DNA of 32,000 nt from Longivirga aurantiaca (GCF_042660085.1 NZ_JBHSTI010000008.1:1110001-1142000), one strand, 5' to 3'; positions 9,302 through 29,508 are shown, counted from the first letter of the stretch. Numbers and translations: made by a program. Notes: generated by a model from the sequence alone, not told the origin.

Positions 9302-9420
9302 GCACCTCCTCGAGGAGGTGGCGCCACCATCGGGAGCCGACGCGGGCGTCCTGCTCCTCTACCCCGATTCTGCGCCCGCCGACATGCGGATGCCACAGCA
9401 GGAGGGCTCGCAACCGCGTC

Positions 9421-9603
9421 GAGGCGCGTAGGTGGGTGGCGGATCCGTCGCAGGGCGCACGCTGGCTACCCGGGTAACCAGCGAGGCGCGTAGGTGGGTG
9501 GCGGATCCGTCGCAGGGCGCACGCTGGCTACCGGGGTAACCAGCGAGGCTCGTGGGTGAGTGCGGAATCTGTCGCAGAGCGCACGCTGGTTACCCGGGTT
9601 GGC
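9421..9603. repeat. REP-like palindromic repeat family: head-to-tail array of 3 units (62 + 62 + ~59 bp)
   Basis: Units 9421-9482 and 9483-9544 differ at a single position by hand alignment (GAGGCGCGTAGGTGGGTGGCGGATCCGTCGCAGGGCGCACGCTGGCTACCCGGGTAACCAGC). The third unit, 9545-9603, is diverged. Each unit contains a near-palindrome CGCTGGcTACCC/GGGTAaCCAGCG. The array lies between the tandem-USP start and the stop of the 9617..10558 gene. Confidence 0.9.
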
Positions 9604-9616
9604 GGGTGCGAGGCGG

Positions 9617-10558
9617 CTACTCCGCGGCCAGGGTGCGCAGCTCGGCGATGGCCTTGCCCGCAGTCCTGAGGTAGTACCACGGCCAGTCCTGGATGCGGTC
9701 GCCGAGCGCGTCGATCTGGTGTGCGCCCTCGGCCTTGTTCTCGCTCACGTACGACGTCATCGCGAAGGTGTTGCGGGCGATGACTCCGGCGGCGTCGTCG
9801 GGGAAGCCGGGCAGCCACGAGGAGGCCGCGGCGTCAGCGAGCTCCTGTGCGACGGCCGCCGAGGAGATGTAGCCGCGCGGAGGCTTGCCGCTGACCCAGT
9901 ACTCGAGGTGCGCGATGCCGATCAGCTCGTTGAGCGGCGACGGCGCGGAGGTGTCGCGGTGCTCCCGGGCGAACGCGAACATCTGCTCGTGGCTGCCGCT
10001 CCACTTCTCGCAGATGCCCTGCAGCGCCTGCTCGTGCAGGGCGAGGAACGACTGCCCGCCCGCCGCGACACCGCGGTCGAACCGGGCCCTTACCTCCGAC
10101 GGGCCGTACTGCAGACCACGGCCGAGGAGTACGGCGGTGCACCACGACAGGGGAGCGCTCGCCCACGGGGTGAGCGCAGGCTGCAGCACCCGCTCGGCCG
10201 CCTCGAGGTAGCCGAAGAACCCCTCGAACTTGCGGGCGCCGACCGTCTCGGCCATCCCGTGGCCGCGGATCGCCCAGCCGGCCTGCACGAGCGCCTGCGC
10301 GTAGACGGTCGAGGCGAACGGGTCGTCCTGCTTCGTGTCGTACCACGCCTGGATGCGGTCGAGGTCGGCCGCGTCGTTCATCCGCGTCAGCGCCGCGTGG
10401 ATGTCGTCGAGGCTCTCGGCACGGGCGGCGATGCCCTCGAACTGCGCGATCTCGCCCGCCTTGCCCGCCGCCAGGGCCTCGGTGACCGTCGCGATCCCGA
10501 GGTCGGGGCTCTCCACGAACCTGGTGCTCGGCTTGGACGTGCGCGAGAACAGACCCAC
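9617..10558 (-). CDS. Hypothetical all-helical cytoplasmic protein, 313 aa (possibly DUF4034-like; unverified recall)
   Basis: ORF track. Strong GC3 codon bias, no signal peptide and no TM segment. The motif ICEKWSGSHEQMFAFAREH resembles the K-W-G-G-S motif I recall for DUF4034-type proteins. No catalytic motif recognised. Confidence 0.7.
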   Translation of the reverse strand: MGLFSRTSKPSTRFVESPDLGIATVTEALAAGKAGEIAQFEGIAARAESLDDIHAALTRMNDAADLDRIQAWYDTKQDDPFASTVYAQALVQAGWAIRGHGMAETVGARKFEGFFGYLEAAERVLQPALTPWASAPLSWCTAVLLGRGLQYGPSEVRARFDRGVAAGGQSFLALHEQALQGICEKWSGSHEQMFAFAREHRDTSAPSPLNELIGIAHLEYWVSGKPPRGYISSAAVAQELADAAASSWLPGFPDDAAGVIARNTFAMTSYVSENKAEGAHQIDALGDRIQDWPWYYLRTAGKAIAELRTLAAE

Positions 10559-10616
10559 GACTTCCCCCTTCGATGTGCGGCCGATCGTAGGGCGCGGGCT
10601 CCGCTCAGGCGTGGTT

Positions 10617-10738
10617 CGGCGTACGTCGGGTGTCGAGCGTGTTCCGGGGCGCGCGCTCGGCGTACCCGGGTAACGGGAAAGGGGCGTAGCTGAGTGCCGA
10701 ATCCGTCCCAGAGCGCACGCTGGTTACCCGGGTAACGG
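10617..10738. repeat. REP-like repeat family: two adjacent units
   Basis: 10617-10675: GGCGTACGTCGGGTGTCGAGCGTGTTCCGGGGCGCGCGCTCGGCGTACCCGGGTAACG. 10681-10738: GGGGCGTAGCTGAGTGCCGAATCCGTCCCAGAGCGCACGCTGGTTACCCGGGTAACGG, with the perfect 14-bp palindrome GTTACCCGGGTAAC at 10723-10736. Confidence 0.85.
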
Positions 10739-10742
10739 CCGA

Positions 10743-10830
10743 TCAGTCGGTGGGGAGCGCGGGGCGGTGCATCACGGCCCAGGTGGGCGCGACCTCGACG
10801 CGGTCGTGGTAAGCCTTCGCGTCGCCGTCG
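10743..10830 (-). pseudogene. 3'-terminal stub of a PNPOx-like gene (paralogue of 21964..22287)
   Basis: The tail of track ORF 10743..11051 (...GDGDAKAYHDRVEVAPTWAVMHRPALPTD) matches the C-terminus of the 21964..22287 protein (DGDAHVEGDRMEVTPTWAVMHRPALAGD). 34 bp are identical (10756-10789 vs 21977-22010). Upstream of ~10830 the similarity is lost, and the ORF overlaps the start of the 10997 gene. Confidence 0.5.
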
Positions 10831-10996
10831 CCGCGACCTCGACCGCGCACCTCACGGGTTCCCGCCGTCGCATCGGGGTCGCCCAGCCTGCTGGCGGCGG
10901 ACGCCCGGACCGACGCGTGGGGCACCCCGGGCAAATGCCCGATGCGGCCCCGAGCCGGCGTCCCTAGCGTCGCGGCGAGGTCGGGGAGGCTCAACG

Positions 10997-13900
10997 ATGA
11001 TGGGACGAACAGTGCGGGGCAGTCGGGCACGGGGTCGTACGGCTGGATCACCTCTTCGTCGCGGCGTGGTGGGCGCCTGCGTCCTCGCCCTCACCGCGTC
11101 GTTGCTGTCGATGACAGGGGCAGGCAGCGCGGTGGGTGCCTCCCTTCCCGCGGCCGTGGTCGCACCTCAGGCCGTGGACGCCGCTGCTGCCGTCCCGGCC
11201 AACGTGACCGTCGGGCGAGGGCACGCCTGCGCCCTCATGGCGACCGGATACGTGTGGTGCTGGGGGCGCAACGACCGCGGCCAGCTCGGCTACCCGAGCG
11301 CGACGACCCCCGGCGAGCCGCGCCCGGTGCCCGGCATCTCCACGGCGGTGCAGGTGGTCGCCGGCGATCTGCACACCTGCGCCCGGCTCACCGATGGCAC
11401 GGTGAAGTGCTGGGGGGCCAACGGTTCGGGTCAGCTCGGCAACGCCTTGACCGTCGACAGCTCGGCGCCGGTCGCAGCGATTGGGCTCTCGGGGGTCACC
11501 GATCTCACGGCTGGACGGGCGCACACGTGTGCCGTCGCGAACGGCCTCGTCTCGTGCTGGGGATCGAACGGGTTCGGCCAGCTCGGGCTCGGCAGTGTGC
11601 GCGAAGCGCGCCTCGGCCTGACCCAGTTGGCGCAGTTCTATGCGATCGGCGTCGGTTCGAACGCCACGGACGACAACGGGGACCTCGTGCTCTCCGACGC
11701 AGCGACCAACGGCACGCTCGGCAGCGGATCGGTCGTCCGGTACGGCGACGACGGCGTGATCAAGTCGTTCTGGAGCATCCCCGGAAGCACTCTCGTAGGT
11801 GGCGTCGCAACCGCCCGCGACGGGTCGCGCACCTACGTCGCCAGCGCGTTCCCGGGTCAGGCCGTGGTCTGGGTGCTGTCCGGTACGACGACGATCGAAC
11901 GCACGTGGAGCCTGGTGAGCAGCGTCCCGGGCTGCGTGACTGCGAGCTGCAGCGTCGTCGGCCTGACCACCGACGCCAACGGCACGGTCTACGCCGCGGT
12001 TCAGCGGTTCGATGGGGCCGGCGTCTCTCGAGCCTCGTTCATCGCGTCGGCGTCGAAGGAGGGACTCCCGCTCGGCGTGACCGATGTGACCGCTCAGATG
12101 ACCGTCATCTCCGACGTCACCTGGGTCCCGGGGGCGAACCGGGGGACGGTGTGGGTGCTCGGTACCAACCTGGTCAACCCGTCGCCCTTCAACCCGTCAC
12201 CCACCCTGTCGTCCTTCGCCATCCCGGCCACCGCCGGCTCGTCCCTGGTCTTCCTCAACAAGAAGTCGGCGTACGCCGCGGTGGAGAGCTGCGTGCCCTC
12301 GGAGGATTACGTGCTGGCGGATCAGACGACGCTCAGCGGCACTGCCTTCTACCGCCACCGACACACGTACCCGCTCGTCAACAGCCTCCGCCTCGGAACC
12401 GCAGCGGACGGCCAGCTGCTGCTCTCGGCCGACTACTCCCAGGGCCGGCGTCTGGAGAACACCTTCACGACCAACCCTGCGGCCCCGGTGGACATCCAGA
12501 CCAACTACACCAACGAGACGCCTGCCGAGGTCGCAGACTGCGTGATGGTCGTGGACCCCGCGGCCTCGTCAACGCAGGCAGCCAGCGTGGTCTTCACGGT
12601 CCGGGGCAGCGCGGGCGATCTCACGGATCTCCGGAAGCCGTTGGACGCAACGGAGTCCGGTGATGGCGGCATCATCGTCTCCGACCCCTCGTACGCCGCT
12701 GCCAGCCCCGCGAGGCTCCAGCGCTTCAACGCGGTGGGCTCGGTCACTCAGTGGGGCCGGGTGCCGATCCGCACGATCCCGACGCCGCTGATGCCGTTGC
12801 AGGCCCTGCAGCCCGGGCAGGCTGCACCGACCATGAGCAGCGTGTTCGCGGGTGCGCATCACACGTGCGCTTCCGGCGTCGTGAACGGCCAGCCGACCAC
12901 GCTGTGCTGGGGCAGCAGCTCCTCCGGCCAGACGGGATGGCCCGCCTCGGGCGCGTCGGCCCTGCGCTTCGGCCTCCCTCCGTCGGACACCGGCGACCAG
13001 AGCAGCTTCCCGATCGCCATGCCCGTGATCGGCGCCGGAGTGGGCAGCGGCGGTCTGGCGCACACGTGCATCGCCCAGAACGGGTCGCCTCGTCAGATGA
13101 CCTGCTGGGGCGCCAACGACAGCGGCCAGACGCGGCTCAACACGGTCGAGGGCGACATCTGGCGGAACGGCGGCACTCCCACGACCGTGCCGGTGACCGA
13201 GCTGGACTCAGGCGACCTCACCACGTGCACGATCGAGTCCACCGACCTGAAGCGCGTGCAGTGCTACGGATCGGACGCTTACGGGCAGACCTCGGTGCGT
13301 CCGGGCGCGTGCCTGAACAACCTGGACTTCGTGCAGACGGCCGGCTGCCAGCAGGTCGGTGGAGCGATGCACATCTCCGCCGGGCCTACCACGACGTGCG
13401 CTGCGACCGCCACCGGCATCGTCTGCTGGGGCGACAACGCGTGGGGGACTCTGGCGACGTATGGCTCGCCTCTGGGCGCCGTCGGCGTCCCGCTCGAGGT
13501 GCCGAGCACGTTCATCGTGAGCGCCCCCGCGACGCTCGATGGAAGCCTCGTGGCGCGGTTCGGCACCAACCTGGACGCGCTCGACGCCACGACCGACGTG
13601 GTGCTCCGCGTCAAGGGATCGGCGAGTGCCCTGGCAAGCACGAAGAGTGTGTCGGCCGACCGTCGGACAGTGAGCATCAAGCCGGCAGCGCCACTCGTCG
13701 CCGGGCAGCAGTACGAAGTCGCAGTCAACACCGGCAGCGCCACAGCGCTCACCTCCGGCGGCCTGCCGCTGACCCCGTCCGTGGTGAGTGCCAGAGCCGC
13801 GACGGCGCTGGGTGACACCAGCCCGGCCAATACGGCGGCCTGGCCAAAGGTCAGCAGCAGCACAGCCCTGGGGGGCTCGTACGTGACGGAGCGGACGGCA

Positions 13901-14515
13901 GGAGCATCCGCGAAGTTCGCGTTCACGGGCAGCTCCGTCGCCCTGCTGACGCGCAAGGGGCCGAGCCAGGGCAAGGTCGTGGTCTCGGTCGGCGCGGTAT
14001 CCAAGACGTTGGACCTGTACTCCGCCACTGCCGTCAACCGGTTCAAGGTCGCCCTCACCGGTCTCGGCGCCGGCCCCCACACGCTGACGGTCAAGGTGCT
14101 GGGCACCCGCAACACCAGGTCGACGGGCACCTCGGTGGCGATCGACGGGTTCTCGGTGGGAGCGGTCACCTCGGCCACGCCGACCTTGACTCCTTCCTGG
14201 GCAGCTGTGTCCTCCTCGACCGCTTCGGCGAAGCGATACGTCCGCTCCCAGCAGGCAGGCGCCACGTACACGGTCACGTTCCGCGGCACACGCATCAACT
14301 GGCTGACGTTCGTAGGCCCCGACTTCGGTGACGCCAAGGTCGTGATCGACGGGAAGGCGAAGGGGACGTTCGCGCTCTACGCGACGGCCACGAAGGCCCG
14401 CACGGTCGCCTTCACGGGGCTGACCGACGCGGTGCACAAGCTGACCGTCACCGTCGCGGGCACGGGCACGGGCACCAAGGACTTCGTCGCAGTCGACGGT
14501 TGGACCGTCTCATGA
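10997..14515 (+). CDS. Giant secreted RCC1-repeat protein (1172 aa): signal peptide, 3 RCC1 blades, ~410-aa NHL-like insert, ~4 RCC1 blades, Ig-like domain, two tandem ~110-aa C-terminal beta-sandwich-like domains
   Basis: GGGGAGG Shine-Dalgarno 7 nt before the ATG at 10997. The N-terminus has an RR-containing basic region plus a hydrophobic core (SPLRRGVVGACVLALTASLL). RCC1 signatures occur about 7 times: GYVWCWGRNDRGQLG, GTVKCWGANGSGQLG, LVSCWGSNGFGQLG (nt 11201-11596), then TTLCWGSSSSGQTG, QMTCWGANDSGQT, VQCYGSDAYGQT, IVCWGDNAWGTL (nt 12830-13462). The C-terminal tandem domains at 13829-14188 and 14189-14512 align by eye (W..VSSST......YV......GA...F.F.G........GP..G...V..........DLY...). 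Confidence 0.9.
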   Translation: MMGRTVRGSRARGRTAGSPLRRGVVGACVLALTASLLSMTGAGSAVGASLPAAVVAPQAVDAAAAVPANVTVGRGHACALMATGYVWCWGRNDRGQLGYPSATTPGEPRPVPGISTAVQVVAGDLHTCARLTDGTVKCWGANGSGQLGNALTVDSSAPVAAIGLSGVTDLTAGRAHTCAVANGLVSCWGSNGFGQLGLGSVREARLGLTQLAQFYAIGVGSNATDDNGDLVLSDAATNGTLGSGSVVRYGDDGVIKSFWSIPGSTLVGGVATARDGSRTYVASAFPGQAVVWVLSGTTTIERTWSLVSSVPGCVTASCSVVGLTTDANGTVYAAVQRFDGAGVSRASFIASASKEGLPLGVTDVTAQMTVISDVTWVPGANRGTVWVLGTNLVNPSPFNPSPTLSSFAIPATAGSSLVFLNKKSAYAAVESCVPSEDYVLADQTTLSGTAFYRHRHTYPLVNSLRLGTAADGQLLLSADYSQGRRLENTFTTNPAAPVDIQTNYTNETPAEVADCVMVVDPAASSTQAASVVFTVRGSAGDLTDLRKPLDATESGDGGIIVSDPSYAAASPARLQRFNAVGSVTQWGRVPIRTIPTPLMPLQALQPGQAAPTMSSVFAGAHHTCASGVVNGQPTTLCWGSSSSGQTGWPASGASALRFGLPPSDTGDQSSFPIAMPVIGAGVGSGGLAHTCIAQNGSPRQMTCWGANDSGQTRLNTVEGDIWRNGGTPTTVPVTELDSGDLTTCTIESTDLKRVQCYGSDAYGQTSVRPGACLNNLDFVQTAGCQQVGGAMHISAGPTTTCAATATGIVCWGDNAWGTLATYGSPLGAVGVPLEVPSTFIVSAPATLDGSLVARFGTNLDALDATTDVVLRVKGSASALASTKSVSADRRTVSIKPAAPLVAGQQYEVAVNTGSATALTSGGLPLTPSVVSARAATALGDTSPANTAAWPKVSSSTALGGSYVTERTAGASAKFAFTGSSVALLTRKGPSQGKVVVSVGAVSKTLDLYSATAVNRFKVALTGLGAGPHTLTVKVLGTRNTRSTGTSVAIDGFSVGAVTSATPTLTPSWAAVSSSTASAKRYVRSQQAGATYTVTFRGTRINWLTFVGPDFGDAKVVIDGKAKGTFALYATATKARTVAFTGLTDAVHKLTVTVAGTGTGTKDFVAVDGWTVS

Positions 14516-17500
14516 GCACCGCAACCCGTGTCCGCCTCACCTCGAAGGGCTCCATGCCGATGTCTCGCTTCACCGCCCTCCTCTGCGTGGGTGTGATGCT
14601 GTCCCTCGGGCTGGGTGCGGCGTCCTCCTACTCCTCTGGCGCCGAGGCGGCGACCGCAACGGCGACCGCGGCGGTTGTCCCAGCGGCGGCACCGGCGCCG
14701 GGCAGCGAGTGCCTCGATGACGTGACCGGCGAGTCCGAGCCGTGCGACTTCGGGATGGAGCCGGTGCGCTTCCCGTCCGGTCGCACGATCGGCGAGTACG
14801 AGAGCGCGGTGCTGACCCGCAGCGCGGCCAACCGCGCCTCGACCGTGTCGATGAACGACTTCACCACCGGGGTCCTGCTCGGCTCCTGCGTCCCTGACGT
14901 CGCATCGTGCGGCCTGGACAACCGCGTCCGAGTCGGCGACGACGGCCCGTTGTACACGGACGCGACCCCGGTCCTCCCGTCGTCGGCGTCGACCACCGTC
15001 GGTGACACCGCCGTGGCGAAGGCCGACTTCAATGGCGACGGCCGCGAGGACGTCGTCACTGCGGCGCTGTGCCCCGTGCTGGGAGGCGGCACGCCGAGCG
15101 AGATCTGCCTTCGGGCGTACGACCCTGACACGGACTCGTGGTCGTCGTGGAGCCCGACGGGTCTGGTGGCGGACTCGGTGAAGGCCGTGGGACGCATCAA
15201 GCTCGCTGCCGGACGGATCGCGCAGACGACGGCGAAGGTGACGGGAGCGTCCTTCACCACGTCGGCTGACGGCTCGAACCTCCTCATGCGCCTCACGACG
15301 GACATCCCCCACCGCCTCACCACGAGCGATGCGCTGCGGTTCGACGCGGCCGGCGTGGCCGAGCTTGCTTCCGCGCTGTGCCTTCCGGCCGATGACGACG
15401 GCACCGAGCCGTTGTGCGCGGGAGATCTCGCCGAGGGGCTGTGGCCGATCGAGTCGATCGCGACCGATCGCCTCTCCTTCGTCGTGGCACTGGGGACGCT
15501 TCAGGACGCGAGCGCCACGGCGACCTGCCCTCCGGAGGGCTTCCGCTGCCTCGCGGACGGCACCCGTGAGCCCTTGGACTGGAGCAGCGACACCGGGTTC
15601 GGCGTCACGGGGACCAACCAGGGCCTCGCCGTGGCCTGGGTCGCGCCTTCGGCCTCGGTGCAGCTCGCGACGTTCATCGTCCGACTGGGCACGACGGCGC
15701 CGTTCTCTCTCAGCGACGTCCACTCCGTCGGTGTGAGCACAGGTGCCCGACAGCCGCTCGACGTCGTGACGGGGGACTTCAACGGGGGAGCCCCCGACGA
15801 GATCGCAGTCGGCTTCGGCAGCACCTGCACCGGCCTTGCCTGCCTGCGCGTGCGCATCTTCCGCTGGAACGACTCCAAGCAGCTGGTCCCTGTCGGAGCG
15901 GCCAACGCACCCGCGGATGCTCCGAAGATGTCCGGAAACGCGAATCTGACCGTGTCGTCCGTCTCCCTCGCGTCCGGGCGGCTCACCAAGGCTGCCGGGA
16001 CCAACCTCGACGGCGACGACCTGCTCGTCGCCGTCCAGAGCACCAGCGGAACGATCGGGTGCCCGGTGCTGCAGGCGTGCATGGCCAGGTACGCCATCAC
16101 GTACGACGTCGCAGGGGACTTCGTCCCGAAGGCAGCTGCAACCACGCTGATCGAGACGGGCAGCGAGGGTCTGGTCGCTTCCCGGTACTCGTTCGTGGCC
16201 GCCGCCGCCGACTTCGACGGTGACGGCATGGACGACCCGGTCATCGGGAGGACCACGACCCAGCTCCTCGGCACTACCGAGAGCCGGGCCGCCTTCACGG
16301 TGATCACGACCCTGTCGTCGACAGGCACCCGCCTGACGTTCAACGGGGACGACGACATGCGCGCTGTCGGTGTCGGCGGCTCAGGACAGCTGGCGCTCGC
16401 AGCCGGGCAGGTCGGGTCTCTCGAGGACGCGAGCAGCCAAGGCTTCCCGAACGCGATCAACCCCGACATCGTCCTCGCGTGGACCTGCGTAGACACGGCC
16501 TCGTGCGGAGCTTCGGCGAGCGGCTCCAGCGTCGCCATCCTGCCGATCGCCGTGAAGATCCAGGCGACGCCTGAGTTCTTCCCCAAGGGCAAGGACAAGC
16601 TCAGCCCGAGCGACGACGGCGGCATCCCGAGCGTCCTGCCCGCGGCGCCGCTCCCTGCGACGTACAACGCGATCACGAGCGAGGCGACGCACGTGGCGCT
16701 CGCCCTGCCCGACCTGGATGCGGACAGCCAGACGCTGGGGACGCCTGTCACCTACGTGACCGTCGGCGAGGTCCGGCCCCTCATGATCCTGCGCTCGCCG
16801 CCCGTCCACTTCGACGCGTTCCCGGCGCTCATCACGAACGACGGCAAGGTCTCCTTCACCGAGACCCGAGACACCAACGGGTGCTTCGGCGCGAAGACTC
16901 CGTCCGACTGCGACGTCGCCACCGTGTACTCGTCGACGTCGACGCTCACCAGCTCGATCGCAGGAAGCATCAACAACTCGTGGGGCATCGGGGGATCGGT
17001 CGGCTTCAACACATGGTTCGGCGATACCAAGGAGACGAAGGCCGGCGTCACGAAGTGCCAGACCGGTGTCTGCGCCGAGCTGACCGTCCTGCTGGAGACC
17101 GAGTACAACGGGGAGCAGGCCGACACCACCAAGGCCGGCACCAACTTCACGTACTCGTTCAGCAAGACCGCTCTCGCCGGCTCCGACGAGGTTCTCGCCT
17201 TCACCGCAGCGACCGAGACGACCGAGTACCCGATCTACCCCGGCACGTCCGTCTTCGGTGGCGAGCTCGAGCCGGGGCGGTACGTCCGCGTCGACAGCCC
17301 CGTCCAGTCGACGCTGGCATGGCGCAGCGCGACCGACCCGGAGATCACCTCGAGCGGCTGGCAGCACTCGGTGCCGGGCAACATCCTCTCCTACCCCAAG
17401 TCCGCGAACACGCTCCCGACCGACACGAAGGCGGTCAAGGAGGCGGAGAAGATCGGCCCGCAGACCGTGCGGATCACCACGACCGGCGATCACGGATACA

Positions 17501-25099: not shown

Positions 25100-25700
25100 C
25101 GGGCAGTGCAGCGTGGCGACGGAGGTGGGCGGCAGTGGTCGAGTGCTCCAGCAGCCCTCGAGATCGTCGATCGCGTGCACGCCCTGGGCCGAGCTCAACC
25201 GCCCGCTGCAGGCGCGGGCCGGCGTCCTCACGGGCGAGGCTGTCGCGAGCCTGAACGCCACCGACCAGCGGTTCGTCACGGGCGACCTCGTCAACACCGC
25301 GAGCCGGCCGGCGCCCTCGCGGCGCTCGACGCCCTCAAGGCCGAGCAGGGTGCGGAGTGGTACGAGCAGGGTGCGGAGTGGAAGCAGCTGCAGTTCGTCA
25401 CGTGGTTCGCACACGCGAGGACCTACGTCCTGCTGCTGTCGGGGGACTCCGCCGCTGCTTCCGTGCGCGACGTGCGCGACAGGTGGCACGACGGAGGGCT
25501 GCCGCTCGACCACGCGTACGCCGTGCTGGTGCTCGCACGCGTGCTGCCGGCGGGCGGCGTGCCGGACGAGCACATCGGCGAGGCCCGAGCCCACCTCGTG
25601 GGGCTCGGGGCAGTGTCGCTGCTGCGCCTGATCGACGCGGCCCTGGAGTCCGCGCGGTCGGCCCAGCTCGTTGCGGCTCCGGCGGCTCCGGCGGCTGCGG
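25100..25700 (+). pseudogene. Frameshifted, internally deleted remnant of a class III adenylate/guanylate cyclase-ATPase-TPR type regulator
   Basis: Cyclase-like sequence is split over two frames. AALEIVDRVHALG sits in the 25058 frame (from nt 25151). AELNRPLQARAGVLTGEAVASLNATDQRFVTGDLVNTASR sits in the 24906 frame (nt 25188-25307) and matches the recalled cyclase pattern R.G..TGE...G....GD.VN.A.R. From ~25313 the reading switches back to the first frame with a helical C-terminal tail (WFAHARTYVLLLSGD...LLRLIDAALESAR). There is no N-terminal catalytic half and no P-loop. Confidence 0.45.
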
Positions 25701-25702
25701 CG

Positions 25703-25858
25703 ACGCAGGTGGGTGGGAAACGTGTTGCGGGGCGCACGCTCGGCTTACCCGGGTAACGAGCGTGCGGTAGAGCGCACGCTGGTTACCCGGGTAACGAGCG
25801 TGGGGCGAAGCTGAGTGCGGAATCCGTCGCAGAGCGCACGCTGGTTACCCGGGTAACG
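25703..25858. repeat. REP-like repeat family: array of ~3 units (one truncated)
   Basis: Units at ~25703-25760, 25761-25797 and 25798-25858. Long near-palindromes are present, e.g. CACGCTgGTTACCC/GGGTAACgAGCGTG, with perfect GTTACCCGGGTAAC at 25782-25795 and 25844-25857. The terminal residues of track ORF 25058..25756 are encoded by this repeat. Confidence 0.88.
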
Positions 25859-25863
25859 GCCGA

Positions 25864-25968
25864 TCAGTCGGTGGCGAGCGCGGGGCGGTGCACCACGGCC
25901 CAGGTGGTGGCGATCTCGATGCGGTCGAGCTTGGCGGCCAGGTCCTCGAGCGGTACGGCGATGCTCAT
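25864..25968 (-). pseudogene. PNPOx-like paralogue with an in-frame ~219-bp internal deletion (34 codons left)
   Basis: MSIAVPLEDLAAKL|DRIEIATTWAVVHRPALATD keeps the first 14 and last ~20 residues of the 107-aa protein at 21964..22287. The upstream leader 25969-26033 is near-identical to 22288-22352. Confidence 0.55.
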
Positions 25969-26033
25969 GCCCGCAGCCTCAGGAGTCCGGGGCGTGCGAC
26001 CGACGGACTCGCGCTCTCGGTGTGAGCGTTCTC

Positions 26034-26084
26034 GGCGTACGTCGTGCTGGATCGCGTCGGAGCGAGCGCGATCCGGCACGGGGT
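26034..26084. repeat. REP-like repeat family unit (degenerate second half)
   Basis: GGCGTACGTCGTGCTGGATCGCGTCGG... matches the first ~27 nt of the units at 22353 and 27117. The remainder is strongly diverged. Confidence 0.5.
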
Positions 26085-26275
26085 TCCCGTGGCGGACGAC
26101 CCGCTGGACGGACGACTCCTCGGCGAGAGGAGGCCGATCTGCCCACCTGCGCGACACCCTGCTCCGCGCGGACGATGCTGGCGTTGCGACCCGGCATCTC
26201 GTCGACCTCGATCTGGCCACCTGCCGACGGCTCCAGCGCCGGGCGGGAGCTCGTCACCGGCTGAGAGGACCTCCG

Positions 26276-27112
26276 ATGTGCCGCTGGTTCGTCTACCGAG
26301 GAGCGCCCCTGCGCACCAGCGAGCTGCTGCTGCATCCGGTGCACTCGATCGTCGCGCAGTCACTGAACTCGCCGCTCGGCGCAGAGCCCGTGAACGGTGA
26401 CGGGTTCGGATTCGGCTGGTATCCCGTGGACGGTGACGGTCCGCCCGGGCTGTTCCACAGCATCGAGCCGGCCTGGCACGACCGGAACCTGCGCTCGCTG
26501 GCCGAGGCCGTGGTGTCGCCGCTGTTCTTCTGCCATGTGCGCGCCGCAGCCGGGCCGCCGATCCAGCAGACCAATTGCCACCCGTTCCGCAACGACGGCT
26601 GGCTCTTCATGCACAACGGCGGCATCGCGGACTTCGATCGCGTCAAGCGCGACCTCGTACTCGCCGTCGACCCCGATCTCTACCCGCTCATGCTGGGCAC
26701 GACCGATTCCGAGGTGCTCTTCCACCTCGCGCTCACCCTCGGCCTGCGCGACGACCCCGTCGGCGCGATAGCGCGCGCGATCGCGTTCGTCGAACGGGTC
26801 GGTCACGAGCACGACGTGCGGTTCCCGTTCCAGGGCAGCATCGCAACGACGGACGGCGACTCGGTCTGGGCGTTCCGCTACTCGTCGCAGGGGCGGTCGC
26901 GCTCGCTGTTCCACTCGACCGACATCTCCGACCTGCGCACGATGTACCCGGACGAGTCGCGGCTCTCCCTCTTCTCCGACGACGCGCGCGTGATCGTGTC
27001 GGAGCCCATCAACGACCTGCCCGGCGCGTTCCTCGAGGTGCCCGAGGCGTCGGTGGCGATCCTCGACGCGGCGGGCTACCGGCACGCCGCCTTCGCGCCC
27101 GCCGGGTCCTGA
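26276..27112 (+). CDS. Class II (Ntn-type) glutamine amidotransferase, EgtC/YafJ-like, 278 aa
   Basis: Inner ATG at 26276 (GAGAGGA upstream) of track ORF 25871..27112. MCRWFVYRGAPLRTSELLLHPVHSIVAQSLNSPLGAEPVNGDGFGFGWYP has the N-terminal Met-Cys (catalytic Cys after Met removal) and the NGDGFG.GWY motif typical of class II GATase domains. HVRAA...NCHPF...WLFMHNG is also present. Confidence 0.88.
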   Translation: MCRWFVYRGAPLRTSELLLHPVHSIVAQSLNSPLGAEPVNGDGFGFGWYPVDGDGPPGLFHSIEPAWHDRNLRSLAEAVVSPLFFCHVRAAAGPPIQQTNCHPFRNDGWLFMHNGGIADFDRVKRDLVLAVDPDLYPLMLGTTDSEVLFHLALTLGLRDDPVGAIARAIAFVERVGHEHDVRFPFQGSIATTDGDSVWAFRYSSQGRSRSLFHSTDISDLRTMYPDESRLSLFSDDARVIVSEPINDLPGAFLEVPEASVAILDAAGYRHAAFAPAGS

Positions 27113-27116
27113 GCAC

Positions 27117-27228
27117 GGCGTACCTGGTGCTGGATCGCGTCGTGGGGCGCGCTCGTCACCCGGGTAGGCCGTGCGGCGGGTAGGGGGCGGCGAGCGCGCG
27201 TCGTGGGGAGCGCGCTCGCGCTCGGGCG
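27117..27228. repeat. REP-like repeat family: one good unit plus one degenerate unit
   Basis: 27117-27170: GGCGTACCTGGTGCTGGATCGCGTCGTGGGGCGCGCTCGTCACCCGGGTAGGCC. ~27190-27228: GCGCGCGTCGTGGGGAGCGCGCTCGCGCTCGGGCGTGG resembles the second half of a unit. Both lie immediately after the amidotransferase stop. Confidence 0.7.
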
Positions 27229-27378
27229 TGGAGCGGCAGGCGGGGATGGGCGCTGCGGGCACGCGTGGGCGTCCCGAGCGGCGCCTCGTCGTGCATCGGT
27301 CCGACGCGTCGGACAACAATGAACGTGGGCGGCCACCTGGCGCCTCGGTGGGGTGCCGACCGCCGGGGGAGGTGTCCC

Positions 27379-28404
27379 ATGCGCCGGACGACGCTCATCC
27401 TGGTTCCGCTGGTTCTCATCCTGGCTGGCTGCGGCAGCACGGCCTCGCCCGGAGGGACGACGTCGCCAGCCGCGACGACGTCACCGTCGGTCTCCGGCTC
27501 CATGACGGCAGGATCGCTCGTGGACGTGCCCGGCTACTCGTACGCCGAGCCCAGCGCGGCCGACCTCGCGACGCTCGAGCCGCTGACCTCGCGCTTCGGC
27601 TTCGCGCAGGTGACGACCCGCCTCGTCACCACCCCCGGGGCCGACCGCGTCCTGCTGGTCGTCTTCTCGGGCGGCACGCCGAAAGCCGACGCGACCGCGG
27701 CCGCGGCAGCCATGGCCGGCGAACTGGGCGCGAGGGCCGGCAACGAGGTCTTCACCGAGCTGATCGAGGCGCGAGCGCGCGTGGCCCACTCGGCCGCCGT
27801 CGTCGCTGATCTCGGGCCGGTGTACGTCTACTCCTTCGAGCAGGACGGGAAGGTCTACTGGGTCCTGAGCGACGGCGATGTCGACGGCGGCAGGTTCGTC
27901 GAGGCGCTGGTGCGCGAGGTGGTCCCTGAAGGCGCACTCGGCACGTCACCCGCAGCGACGCCCGGCGCGGGGGAGCCGAGCCTCGTCCCCGTACCCGGCT
28001 ACGGCTACGCCGAGCTGGAGGGCGAGGCCGCCTCGATGTTCGGCATCAGCGGGCCGAAGGAGGGGTGGTCGCAGGCCTCGACGCATCGGGTGACCGGTGT
28101 CCCGACCCTGGTGGTGCTGGGCGTGCTCGTGCCCGACGCATCGCTGGCCGCCGACAAGGACGCCATGGCTACGGCCGCGGACCTCGCTGGCGTGCTGCTC
28201 ACGCAGCCGGACGACACGGTGAAGTCGGAGACCATCGGCGGGCAGGACCTGCGGCACTCCCGCTTCACCGCCACGAACAGCGAGCGCATGTCCTCCATCT
28301 CGTTCGTGCACGACGGCACCGTCTACTGGCTGATCTGCGAGGACGACGTCGACTGCACAGGCTTCGCAACGGCGCTGATCCGCCAGCTCGGAACCGATTC
28401 CTGA
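27379..28404 (+). CDS. Lipoprotein of unknown function with an internal tandem duplication (2 x ~137 aa), 341 aa
   Basis: Inner ATG at 27379, preceded by GGGGGAGG. MRRTTLILVPLVLILAGCGS has lipobox L-A-G-C. The repeated halves are nt 27514-27924 and 27979-28392: SLVDVPGYSYAE...DGKVYWVLSDGDVDGGRFVEALVREV vs SLVPVPGYGYAE...DGTVYWLICEDDVDCTGFATALIRQL. Confidence 0.85.
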   Translation: MRRTTLILVPLVLILAGCGSTASPGGTTSPAATTSPSVSGSMTAGSLVDVPGYSYAEPSAADLATLEPLTSRFGFAQVTTRLVTTPGADRVLLVVFSGGTPKADATAAAAAMAGELGARAGNEVFTELIEARARVAHSAAVVADLGPVYVYSFEQDGKVYWVLSDGDVDGGRFVEALVREVVPEGALGTSPAATPGAGEPSLVPVPGYGYAELEGEAASMFGISGPKEGWSQASTHRVTGVPTLVVLGVLVPDASLAADKDAMATAADLAGVLLTQPDDTVKSETIGGQDLRHSRFTATNSERMSSISFVHDGTVYWLICEDDVDCTGFATALIRQLGTDS

Positions 28405-28413
28405 CGCCGGGGG

Positions 28414-28444
28414 CGACGGACGGCCCAGGGGGCTGGCCCCGTCG
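28414..28444 (+). terminator. Possible GC-rich hairpin downstream of the lipoprotein gene
   Basis: CGACGG (28414-28419) pairs with CCGTCG (28439-28444). An inner GGCC.AG/CT.GGCC stem has a 4-nt GGGG loop and two bulges. No U-tract. Confidence 0.3.
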
Positions 28445-28552
28445 AACGGCCGGGCGCCGGGGGGAAGTCGACAGGACTCCGCGAAGGCCCCAGCCCTACT
28501 CTGACGCTGACGGGCGCTGGGGCGCCCGGCCTCCGCGGCCGCTCGCCAAGGG

Positions 28553-29359
28553 GTGATCCCCGTGCTGAGCACATCTCGCACCCGTTCGCTCGTCCTCGTC
28601 GTCGCCTGCCTGGCGGTTGCCGCGTGCGGGCCGACCCCGGCTCCCGGGTTGAGCGCCAGCAGCTCGACGCCCTCGACCGGAGCCTCTGCCACCTCCCCGA
28701 CCGCCACCACCACGACCTCTGCCACGCCGTCGACGCAATCGGCCACGCCGGTCGACCGCGACCCGCTCACGCACAAGCTGCTGGCCGAGGACTTCTCCCA
28801 GGGCCCCGGCGTCTTCCACGTCGGCGACCTGAACGGCTACACGTACGCGGTCAAGGACGGCGCGTACGTCATCACCGCGACGTCCAAGCCGTCCGGCCCG
28901 GCCGAGACGTACGGCGAGTACGCACGAGTCGCGTACGCCATCGACTCGAGCGTCGACGTGGTCGGCGCGGCGTCGGCCGGCACGAAGACCGCCGTCGGCA
29001 TCGCCTGCTTCGACGCCGCGGGCGAGAACGGCCTCATGATGCTCGCGGCGGCGGACGGCTCGGGCGGTGCCTATCTCAGGTTCGTGAACGGCGTGCCGGA
29101 CGCCGAGCCGCTCGCCGAGTGGGGCGCCTCGCTGACATCCGGAGCAGCGGTGACGTCCCTGCGGTTCCTGGCTGCCATCAGCAACCCTCTGAACGACGAC
29201 GTACGCCTCTCGGGCTGGGTGAACGGGGTGGCCGTGCCCGCGAGTCCCGAGACGGACAAGTTCGAGGGCTGCGCCGGCATGGTCCTGTTGCTGATGGCAC
29301 CCACCAAGGGCGTCAGCGTGAGCTTCGACAACGCACGCGCGATCGTGCCCGGGGAGTAG
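28553..29359 (+). CDS. Lipoprotein of unknown function with a Ser/Thr/Pro-rich linker and a beta-rich (jelly-roll-like?) C-terminal domain, 268 aa
   Basis: Track ORF (GTG start). SLVLVVACLAVAACGPT has lipobox V-A-A-C. It is followed by the low-complexity linker SSSTPSTGASATSPTATTTTSATPSTQSATP and a ~190-aa domain ending VSVSFDNARAIV. The fold assignment is a guess. Confidence 0.8.
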   Translation: MIPVLSTSRTRSLVLVVACLAVAACGPTPAPGLSASSSTPSTGASATSPTATTTTSATPSTQSATPVDRDPLTHKLLAEDFSQGPGVFHVGDLNGYTYAVKDGAYVITATSKPSGPAETYGEYARVAYAIDSSVDVVGAASAGTKTAVGIACFDAAGENGLMMLAAADGSGGAYLRFVNGVPDAEPLAEWGASLTSGAAVTSLRFLAAISNPLNDDVRLSGWVNGVAVPASPETDKFEGCAGMVLLLMAPTKGVSVSFDNARAIVPGE

Positions 29360-29373
29360 TCGCCGGGCCCGAC

Positions 29374-29430
29374 GTCGTACCTGAGCGGGGATCCCGTCGT
29401 GGAGCGAACGCTGGGTACCCAGGTAGCGGG
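29374..29430. repeat. REP-like repeat family unit with a variant palindromic core
   Basis: GTCGTACCTGAGCGGGGATCCCGTCGTGGAGCGAACGCTGGGTACCCAGGTAGCGGGGG aligns with the family consensus. Its core is the perfect 12-bp palindrome CTGGGTACCCAG (29411-29422) instead of GTTACCCGGGTAAC. It lies just after the lipoprotein stop. Confidence 0.7.
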
Positions 29431-29508
29431 GGTGCGAGCCCCTGCTCGGCAGGATTCCGCGCGCACGGAGGGGAAGGATGAGGACATGACCAGGTCGCCC
29501 TTTCAACC

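Follow-up and report, generated by a model that had tools for sequence, protein, structure and literature searches.

MIRUs are actinobacterial repeats in which units of tens of bases are arranged head-to-tail, at many intergenic loci and at gene boundaries (PMC12548453). The number of units varies between strains, and insertion is described at start codons, an internal ORF being translationally coupled at -4 nt (PMC12548453). In Mycobacterium, the RNIE study described TRIT, a genus-restricted and highly conserved palindromic motif of ~150 copies that is very tightly positioned at stop codons, in the form of solitary hairpins, bidirectional for the most part, that overlap the coding-sequence end; its authors had also proposed a factor recognising the conserved sequence (PMC3152330). 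REP, BIME and REPIN elements are short extragenic palindromic repeats found behind genes, where the neighbouring ORFs are convergent or co-directional, with a lineage-specific distribution and an organization in mosaics with other repeats (PMC3733652). Individual REPs measure 20-40 bp and form a stem of at least 8-9 bp directly after a tag; they mostly occur as inverted (HH/TT) dimers, head-to-tail dimers being reported as negligible (PMC3733652). In GTAG/CGTC-tagged REPs, the unpaired tag is followed by a stem of at least 8-9 bp with a loop of 4-5 nt (Di Nocera 2013). Two further systems invite comparison, namely the attC sites of integrons, which are co-oriented imperfect palindromes right behind stop codons that bracket individual genes in a gene-variable region, and CRISPR arrays, in which copies of one constant repeat are separated by unique spacers of ~30 nt.

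Here, a stretch of 32,000 nt from Longivirga aurantiaca (NZ_JBHSTI010000008.1:1110001-1142000), hereafter designated as the window, was found to carry a family of intergenic repeats with a unit of 62 nt, a size that corrects the ~60 bp of the preliminary description. Each unit is composed of a conserved core of ~49 nt and a variable linker of ~13 nt. Arrays are always head-to-tail and contain one to four units, with ~46 good units at 22 intergenic loci of the genome. The spacing between cores in this genome is 62 nt in 19 cases and 61 or 63 nt in seven more; at the loci read in two related genomes, G007 and G018, all 18 array spacings were 62±1 nt, and three further values (38-136 nt) came from variant or non-adjacent matches. 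Within the window, repeat finders returned a 62-bp period at 9420-9599, and the core GTTACCCGGGTAAC occurred seven times with up to two mismatches, as compared with none in 100 shuffles. Adjoining units are near-identical in some arrays. With six canonical and six to seven degenerate units (Table 1), the initial estimate of at least 13 copies was roughly right, every site listed at that time holding units, and the repeat model had no match left of position 9421, as first reported for the region left of 9.4 kb. An Rfam search of the whole window at permissive E only returned a chance miRNA match and none that was credible, and neither tRNA nor tmRNA was found in the window.

Table 1. Repeat units and associated genes in the window.
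Feature	Position	Strand	Evidence and context
Array of three canonical 62-nt units	9421-9606	+	between USP gene start and DUF4034 gene stop; first two units identical but for one base; one unit at this site in a close Logan relative
DUF4034-family gene, 313 aa, inside array	9617-10558	-	only in this genome and one 90%-identical relative
Degenerate unit (10617-10678) and canonical unit (10679-10740)	10617-10740	+	3' edge 2 nt from stop of PNPOx-like fragment
3' fragment of PNPOx-like gene	10743-10833	-	repeat families D2/D3; translation; duplicated along with the adjoining repeat unit
Intact small PNPOx/F420-type gene	21964-22287	-	its 3' end is the source of two truncated copies
Degenerate unit	22353-22409	+	model E 0.005; repeat family D10; upstream of PNPOx-like gene, 18 nt from EamA/cNMP gene stop; two good units at the orthologous place in G018
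Composite array: degenerate unit, full-hairpin variant and canonical unit	25698-25861	+	folding z -5.45; variant with ~21-bp arms, GTAGAG loop and core spacing of 38 nt
Remnant of PNPOx-like gene after internal deletion, leaving the first ~14 and last ~20 codons	25864-25968	-	D3, D4; abuts array 25698-25861
Relic of degenerate unit	26034-26084	+	D10 only, 81% to 22352-22388; same subfamily as 22353 and 27116 units; below reach of repeat model
Two degenerate units	27116-27228	+	D10, D16; model E 1.8e-4; start 4 nt past GATase-like gene stop
Single canonical unit, variant core CTGGGTACCCAG	29370-29431	+	11 nt past a stop codon, ~60 nt ahead of next gene

The 62-nt arrays resemble MIRUs by their head-to-tail organization and variable unit number. 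In contrast to MIRUs, they abut the upstream stop codon, their units are hairpin-derived, and no internal coupled ORF is present, the period of 62 not being a multiple of 3 and stops occurring in all three sense frames across two consensus units. They resemble TRITs in their restriction to one genus and in their narrow position at the end of genes: 14 of the 20 assessable arrays start no more than 18 nt downstream of the stop codon of a same-sense gene, or overlap it by no more than 14 nt, and in three cases the stop codon of the gene is the unit's own TAG or TGA. Compared by description, the two families differ in that the 62-nt units are largely decayed hairpins, repeated in tandem with a fixed period, present in ~46 copies and regionally clustered. 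The units also contain the GTAG and CGTC tetranucleotides of REPs (unit columns 8-11 and 26-29, respectively), but no stem follows either tag, and the minisatellite-like layout of all 22 arrays differs from that of REPs and BIMEs by the absence of inverted doublets, an inverted arrangement being only found as the internal two-arm hairpin of rare full-hairpin variants. Like the CGTC REPs (PMC3733652), the family lacks a dedicated transposase. The Y1 transposase domain PF01797 had no match in this genome (96% complete) or in any of the 28 genomes of the genus, control genomes being positive, and the suggestion that the repeats are substrates of a RAYT-like enzyme found no support; with no Y1 transposase, no inverted dimers and no base-pair covariation, the family falls outside the REP/RAYT group. 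As for attC sites, the arrays are co-oriented imperfect palindromes found right behind stop codons in a gene-variable region, where they bracket individual genes. However, no integrase is found nearby, units are in tandem, and the segments between arrays range from 1 to 14 kb and include housekeeping genes and multi-gene blocks, with other arrays occurring singly behind core genes elsewhere; the integron reading was dismissed, there being no PF00589 domain within the array-rich 134 kb and blocks such as pta, recQ and multi-gene segments in place of single promoterless cassettes. A CRISPR origin was also set aside, since only ~13 nt of each unit varies and arrays of one to four units lie behind ordinary genes.

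The 22 loci are spread over at least seven contigs. An interspersed family, as proposed in the preliminary description, is thus real, although strongly regional, with 12 of the 22 loci inside one 134-kb region that includes the window; genome-wide, loci were found behind genes such as smc, serS, uppS, pheA and pta. Confinement of the motif to a single locus, the copies being by-products of a local segmental duplication, might be suspected from this clustering and from the fact that some window copies did duplicate together with the end of the PNPOx-like gene. Yet ten more loci occupy other parts of the chromosome or other contigs, behind unrelated housekeeping genes and with orthologues in sister species, which refutes such confinement and leaves this explanation with a negligible probability. 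The intergenic position 3' of stop codons was borne out, arrays hugging the end of genes. Orientation is a bias only, since arrays at C8:1047592, at window position 9421 and at the G007/G018 site near C8:1053.6 kb run antisense to the gene that ends next to them, and one array is flanked by divergent genes. No recurrent family emerged when the flanking ORFs were compared all-against-all by BLAST, and no transposase adjoins any array. The GC skew of the contig is flat, which gives no basis for relating the arrays to origin or terminus. Arrays were also seen in mosaics with other hairpin families.

The 62-nt family was found in no more than three species-level genomes, all from one genus, in agreement with the lineage-specific family first envisaged. 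The two carriers besides this genome, G007 and G018, are MAGs labelled as uncultured Actinomycetes and Candidatus Nanopelagicales. No match to the repeat was found in plasmid and phage collections, nor in two metagenome-contig scans. Sister families of the genus share with it the motif GTCGCAGAGCGC, which is also present in an array family of 62-63 nt in G021 and corresponds, in G004 and G017, to the loop and closing pairs of intact hairpins following stop codons. The three carriers have most arrays at orthologous positions, and only one clear gain was identified, an array found at smc-ftsY in this genome alone; the corresponding site is empty in G007 (38 nt) and occupied by other repeats in G018 and G021. 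A target-site duplication could not be discerned there at a divergence of ~12%. The arrays are old and vertically inherited in three sister species, and change mainly in unit number, which can differ between close relatives (1 vs 3). Degenerate orthologous copies occur at the DUF305 site of G018 and at window position 22353.

Comparison of orthologous arrays revealed a marked heterogeneity among positions (chi-square P 2e-12): in sets made of copies still recognisable in both genomes, and therefore biased toward conservation, the 26 low-entropy columns of the core were 94.1% identical, the 23 variable core columns 71.9% and the linkers 65.6%. For neighbouring genes, identity was ~80-85% at third codon positions, against ~95% at the first two. 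An independent check of G007 against G018, with column entropy derived from other units of this genome, gave 90.7, 78.4 and 73.1%, respectively (Spearman P 0.005). Three blocks, TAGCTGAG, CGTCGCAGAGCGCAC and G-TACCCGGGTA, are under purifying selection at a fixed phase of 62±1 nt. This constraint is not universal, some orthologous copies being degenerate. Because these 26 core columns are conserved between orthologues and the period of 62±1 nt is kept, the pattern points to selection acting on a module recognised by its sequence and, with ~26 positions fixed between species, the repeats look used by the cell rather than junk. Small intergenic repeats are usually dismissed as selfish DNA, and the family could be regarded as a non-autonomous REP- or MITE-like element without host function, spread in trans by some mechanism, grown by slippage and now decaying. 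Its restriction to one lineage, the private array at smc-ftsY, the unit number varying among close relatives, near-identical adjoining units, degenerate relics and the mosaics with other hairpin families would all fit such a history. Nevertheless, column-specific conservation at orthologous loci exceeds that of third codon positions, orthologues of most loci are present in three species and only one gain is clear, no transposase lies beside any array and the genus is devoid of Y1 transposase, so that a purely selfish or neutral origin seems unlikely. Some 26 nt per unit fixed at orthologous loci in three species, with neighbours drifting and the 62-nt spacing kept, are rather the signature of a used recognition element.

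Of the near-perfect palindromes of 24-34 bp first described, long ones (arms of 12-14 bp) are found in only ~5 of 46 units, most units pairing only TACCC with GGGTA(AC) over 5-8 bp. The compensated variant core, previously taken as a sign of selection on the hairpin or dyad, does exist, but base-pair covariation across 41 units, assessed with two explicit structures and an all-pairs mutual-information scan, was no better than in shuffled data. RNAalifold returned no structure for single units. Selection on the hairpin found no support here and, given this absence of covariation, an RNA structure would be no more than putative. Folding of the arrays is better than that of shuffled sequences (z -3.7 to -5.5), with similar z-scores on both strands after composition control; two near-fixed G-U pairs (13-52 and 18-47) bring the long-range pairing to 80% on the sense strand, against ~65% on the other strand. 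The suggestion that the repeats are terminators did not hold for the classical type: no T-run follows any array and no site at the arrays resembled an intrinsic terminator, with its GC-rich hairpin followed by a U-tract. A U-tract is reportedly required by mycobacterial RNA polymerase (PMC3993855).

Conservation that is position-specific and devoid of covariation would also be expected from phased DNA sites. With a unit of 62 bp, or about six helical turns, the three blocks would all face the same side of the duplex, within reach of a DNA-binding protein of architectural, partition-like or regulatory type, for which the palindrome TTACCCGGGTAA would be a dimer site. The strict period of 62±1 despite a free linker sequence, the perfect dyad of 10-14 bp and the arrays found antisense or between divergent genes are in line with this explanation. 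However, a DNA site needs neither to hug stop codons nor to prefer the sense orientation, the dyad is hardly present outside arrays, with no regulon-like use seen, and no candidate protein was identified, which makes phased DNA sites rather improbable.

Taken as a whole, the scenario that we tentatively favour, at a little below an even chance, is that of a decayed hairpin repeat, amplified into arrays, which is a candidate factor-bound element at transcript 3' ends. The ancestor would have been a hairpin repeat close to stop codons, with arms of ~21 bp around a GCAGAG-type loop, whose left arm may have decayed in this lineage, the 62-nt unit, core and linker, being presumably amplified into short head-to-tail arrays. 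Each unit would serve as a module recognised by a putative sequence-specific factor acting in trans. [quoted passage not shown] Should a binding factor or a 3'-end role be found, the family would provide a handle on how gene ends are marked in high-GC actinobacteria without U-tract terminators, the same question as raised for mycobacterial TRITs. As a side effect of this factor-bound element, dispersed arrays may offer patches of homology where genes are gained, lost and shuffled.

Arrays coincide with the junctions of indels and rearrangements, and two genes are located within arrays. The coincidence with breakpoints pointed out in the preliminary description was confirmed, an array being present at every synteny break seen between the window and its relatives. 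These observations can also be read as a cassette-exchange system in which arrays are the recombination sites, with genes captured into arrays and lost from them through a dedicated enzyme, recombinase or nuclease, or through homologous recombination between arrays. The DUF4034 gene lies inside an array that is an uninterrupted 2-unit array in G007; a DUF559 gene (Vsr-like nuclease fold) lies between two arrays in this genome and G007 vs a single degenerate unit in G018; a 12-kb segment bounded by units is missing from G007; and the 3' end of the PNPOx-like gene is triplicated in the window with its adjoining unit. Against this, none of the seven PF00589 tyrosine recombinase loci falls in the array-rich 134 kb (C8:1.036-1.170 Mb), only one of six DUF559 loci is array-flanked, the inter-array segments of 1-14 kb include pta, recQ and other housekeeping genes, and junctions must fall in intergenic DNA anyway, where arrays fill most gene ends of this region. 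Cassette exchange therefore appears quite improbable. Hardly more credit can be given to a combined view, with arrays as a phased platform under selection, each unit of 62 bp spanning about six helical turns, for a putative sequence-specific factor common to a clade of this genus, doubling as capture sites for DUF4034 and DUF559 genes; if true, this would amount to a cassette-exchange system in Actinobacteria that is recombinase-less or based on a novel enzyme. Association with nucleases was rejected on the DUF559 count and the lack of a recurrent family among flanking ORFs, and the gene inside the first array of the window is a DUF4034 gene rather than a nuclease. At a practical level, the arrays break assemblies, mark the variable junctions of this chromosome region and could serve as VNTR markers for this uncultured group. 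Arrays lie at the ends of contigs C26, C42 and C51, and an N gap follows C8:1149796. Finally, only in G007 and G018 does an SNase homologue adjoin the pta-recQ unit.

The repeats form a genuine, lineage-restricted family of 62-nt units. In the window, the core GTTACCCGGGTAAC occurs seven times with up to two mismatches, against none in 100 shuffles, and repeat finders assign 9420-9599 a period of 62 bp (2.9 copies, 91%). Across the 3.67-Mb assembly, an nhmmer profile made from five window units, after a single iteration, identified 46 good units in 22 arrays, each a head-to-tail row of one to four units; a sequence-only Infernal model returned 54 matches, a figure that also counts degenerate units and echoes of the palindrome on the reverse strand. 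Units or recognizable relics were present at every site listed in the preliminary description, and the Infernal model agreed that none lies left of 9421 in the window. Forty-one units could be aligned without a gap (alignment A1); columns 9-57 make up the conserved core, and some 13 nt form the linker. Compared from array to array, linkers show an identity of 0.39, about chance at this base composition, yet the cores of adjacent units are spaced 62±1 nt nearly throughout, despite differing linkers. The assembly is broken by these repeats: three small contigs (C26, C42 and C51) terminate in arrays, and a run of N (contig C8:1149796-1149876) follows the full-hairpin units between pta and recQ, so the genomic copy number is a lower bound. 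Where this genome has the N run, two other carrier MAGs (G007 and G018) hold an SNase-homologue gene.

Within a panel of 41 genomes (this one, 24 others of its genus and 16 from the order's other families), the family was otherwise carried only by G007 (33 matches) and G018 (13), the same two MAGs being recovered from a species-representative collection. Plasmids, phages and JGI metagenome contigs gave no match, and no description of the family was found in the literature searched. The nearest known systems are MIRUs in layout and TRITs in placement.

All 22 arrays are intergenic, and 12 lie within C8:1.036-1.170 Mb, which includes the window. Their neighbors are ordinary genes, among them smc-ftsY, serS-GNAT, a GT4 gene with dapF, uppS, pheA, pta-recQ and a DinG-like helicase. 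Fourteen of the 20 assessable arrays start between +18 nt and -14 nt of the stop codon of a same-sense gene, and three times that stop codon is a TAG or TGA belonging to the unit itself. Antisense exceptions are found at C8:1047592, at window 9421 and at one G007/G018 site, and one array lies between divergent genes. The preferred mechanism is that a factor would bind the repeats at transcript 3' ends. The arrays behind the GT4 gene and uppS share a flank of ca. 50 nt past the last unit (loci L001:3433-3490 and, downstream of C8:2142981, L005), and therefore a composite element was copied between both loci. At three G018 stretches (L056:2215-2290 and 2345-2420, L037:4835-5008), unrelated hairpin or tandem repeat families share or take over the gaps holding 62-nt units; such gaps are BIME-like mosaics.

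A REP-like palindromic family had been proposed, but the 62-nt family failed the tests of REP/RAYT identity. Searches for a Y1/RAYT transposase were negative in this genome and throughout 28 genus genomes; the array-rich region contains no tyrosine recombinase, and no array is flanked by a transposase. The arrays carry no hairpin plus T-run terminator, Rfam gave no match, and no consistent link between arrays and nuclease genes could be confirmed. On either strand, arrays fold more stably than shuffles (z -3.7 to -5.5), and two near-fixed G-U pairs favor the sense strand. Covariation did not exceed that of shuffles in either the core hairpin or a long-range pairing (columns 9-18 with 47-56), and mutual information computed over 76 units gave signals from neighboring columns only; the "compensated variant" previously taken as a sign of selection on the hairpin or dyad is therefore best regarded as an anecdote.

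In most units, the palindromic part is reduced to TACCC/GGGTA(AC), whose arms measure 5-8 bp; about 5 of the 46 units have longer ones, of 12-14 bp. Complete hairpins (see table) have arms terminating in the TACCCGGGTA palindrome. Sister families were found in three genus relatives: in G004 and G017 the hairpins are intact, show stems of ca. 20 bp and a TCGCAGAG loop, and lie directly past stop codons (loci L059, L060, L062 and L063), and G021 has head-to-tail arrays of 62-63 nt with different arms (L038:1235-1500, L057 and L058). All share GTCGCAGAGCGC with the 62-nt family. Read against these sister-family hairpins, the canonical unit appears to be a tandemly amplified hairpin with a decayed left arm, plus a linker.

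Comparisons between species were made on orthologous arrays of equal unit number, still recognizable in both genomes. Interspecies identity reached 94.1% in the 26 core columns conserved among paralogues, 71.9% in the 23 variable core columns and 65.6% in linkers (heterogeneity P 2e-12; Spearman rho 0.76), adjacent genes showing ca. 80-85% at third codon positions and ca. 95% at first and second positions. Between G007 and G018, with this genome's units off the orthologue side, the values were 90.7, 78.4 and 73.1%, respectively; these comparisons rest on small samples and related genomes, and some orthologues are degenerate. We read this pattern as purifying selection on a recognition module, because column-specific conservation is not expected from uniform gene conversion.

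The majority of arrays are orthologous among carriers, and the smc-ftsY array is the only one private to this genome (the site is empty in G007, 38 nt, and holds other repeats in G018 and G021). The family is thus old and mostly vertically inherited, with varying unit number and rare new insertions. A 90%-identical relative from Logan has one unit where this genome has three.

Coordinates and unit counts of individual features (window positions unless a contig is named)
Feature	Position	Units, this genome	Units, G007	Units, G018	Remark
Complete hairpin	25738-25799; C8:1149735				~21-bp arms, GYAGAG loop, core spacing 38 nt
PNPOx-like 3' fragment	10743-10833				
PNPOx-like intact gene	21964-22287				
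PNPOx-like internal-deletion remnant	25864-25968				
serS-GNAT		2	2	2	
FAD-oxidoreductase-PEP mutase		2	2	2	
C33 site		2	2		Counts cover these two genomes
GT4-dapF		3		2	Counts cover these two genomes
Upstream of pta		2	4	2	
After DUF305		3	3	one degenerate unit	

As the preliminary description had noted for rearrangement breakpoints, arrays do coincide with junctions seen against relatives, a coincidence that does not in itself imply a causal role. The order X-USP-PNPOx of G021 (X, the neighbor of USP there; USP, the gene adjoining the array at 9421; PNPOx, a small PNPOx/F420-type gene) corresponds in G007 to USP, a 2-unit array and PNPOx, and in this genome to USP, three units, a DUF4034 gene, two units, a PNPOx 3' fragment, an 11-kb island and the intact PNPOx, with a second X-array-PNPOx remnant. 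Both truncated PNPOx-like copies were duplicated along with the adjoining repeat unit. The 11-kb block (10997-21838), of lower GC (0.66-0.70), lies between direct copies of the PNPOx-like 3' end (10745-10833 and 21966-22054). It encodes an AAA/LuxR regulator of 838 aa together with two giant repeat proteins of secreted type, one RCC1/Big_5 (1172 aa) and one FG-GAP (1575 aa); the block was found in the Logan relative, with no match in G007, G018 or G021. Here and in G007, two arrays flank a DUF559 gene at a site that in G018 carries a single degenerate unit, and a unit-bounded 12-kb segment is missing from G007. Near C8:1053.6 kb, G007 and G018 have an array, and 3.5 kb of other DNA stands in its place here. 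One block (L047:2-2744 of G007 contig C111; C8:1144242-1146984 here) shows 93.5% identity between the two genomes, against 83-88% in neighboring blocks, and begins exactly at an array edge; it may reflect recent exchange.
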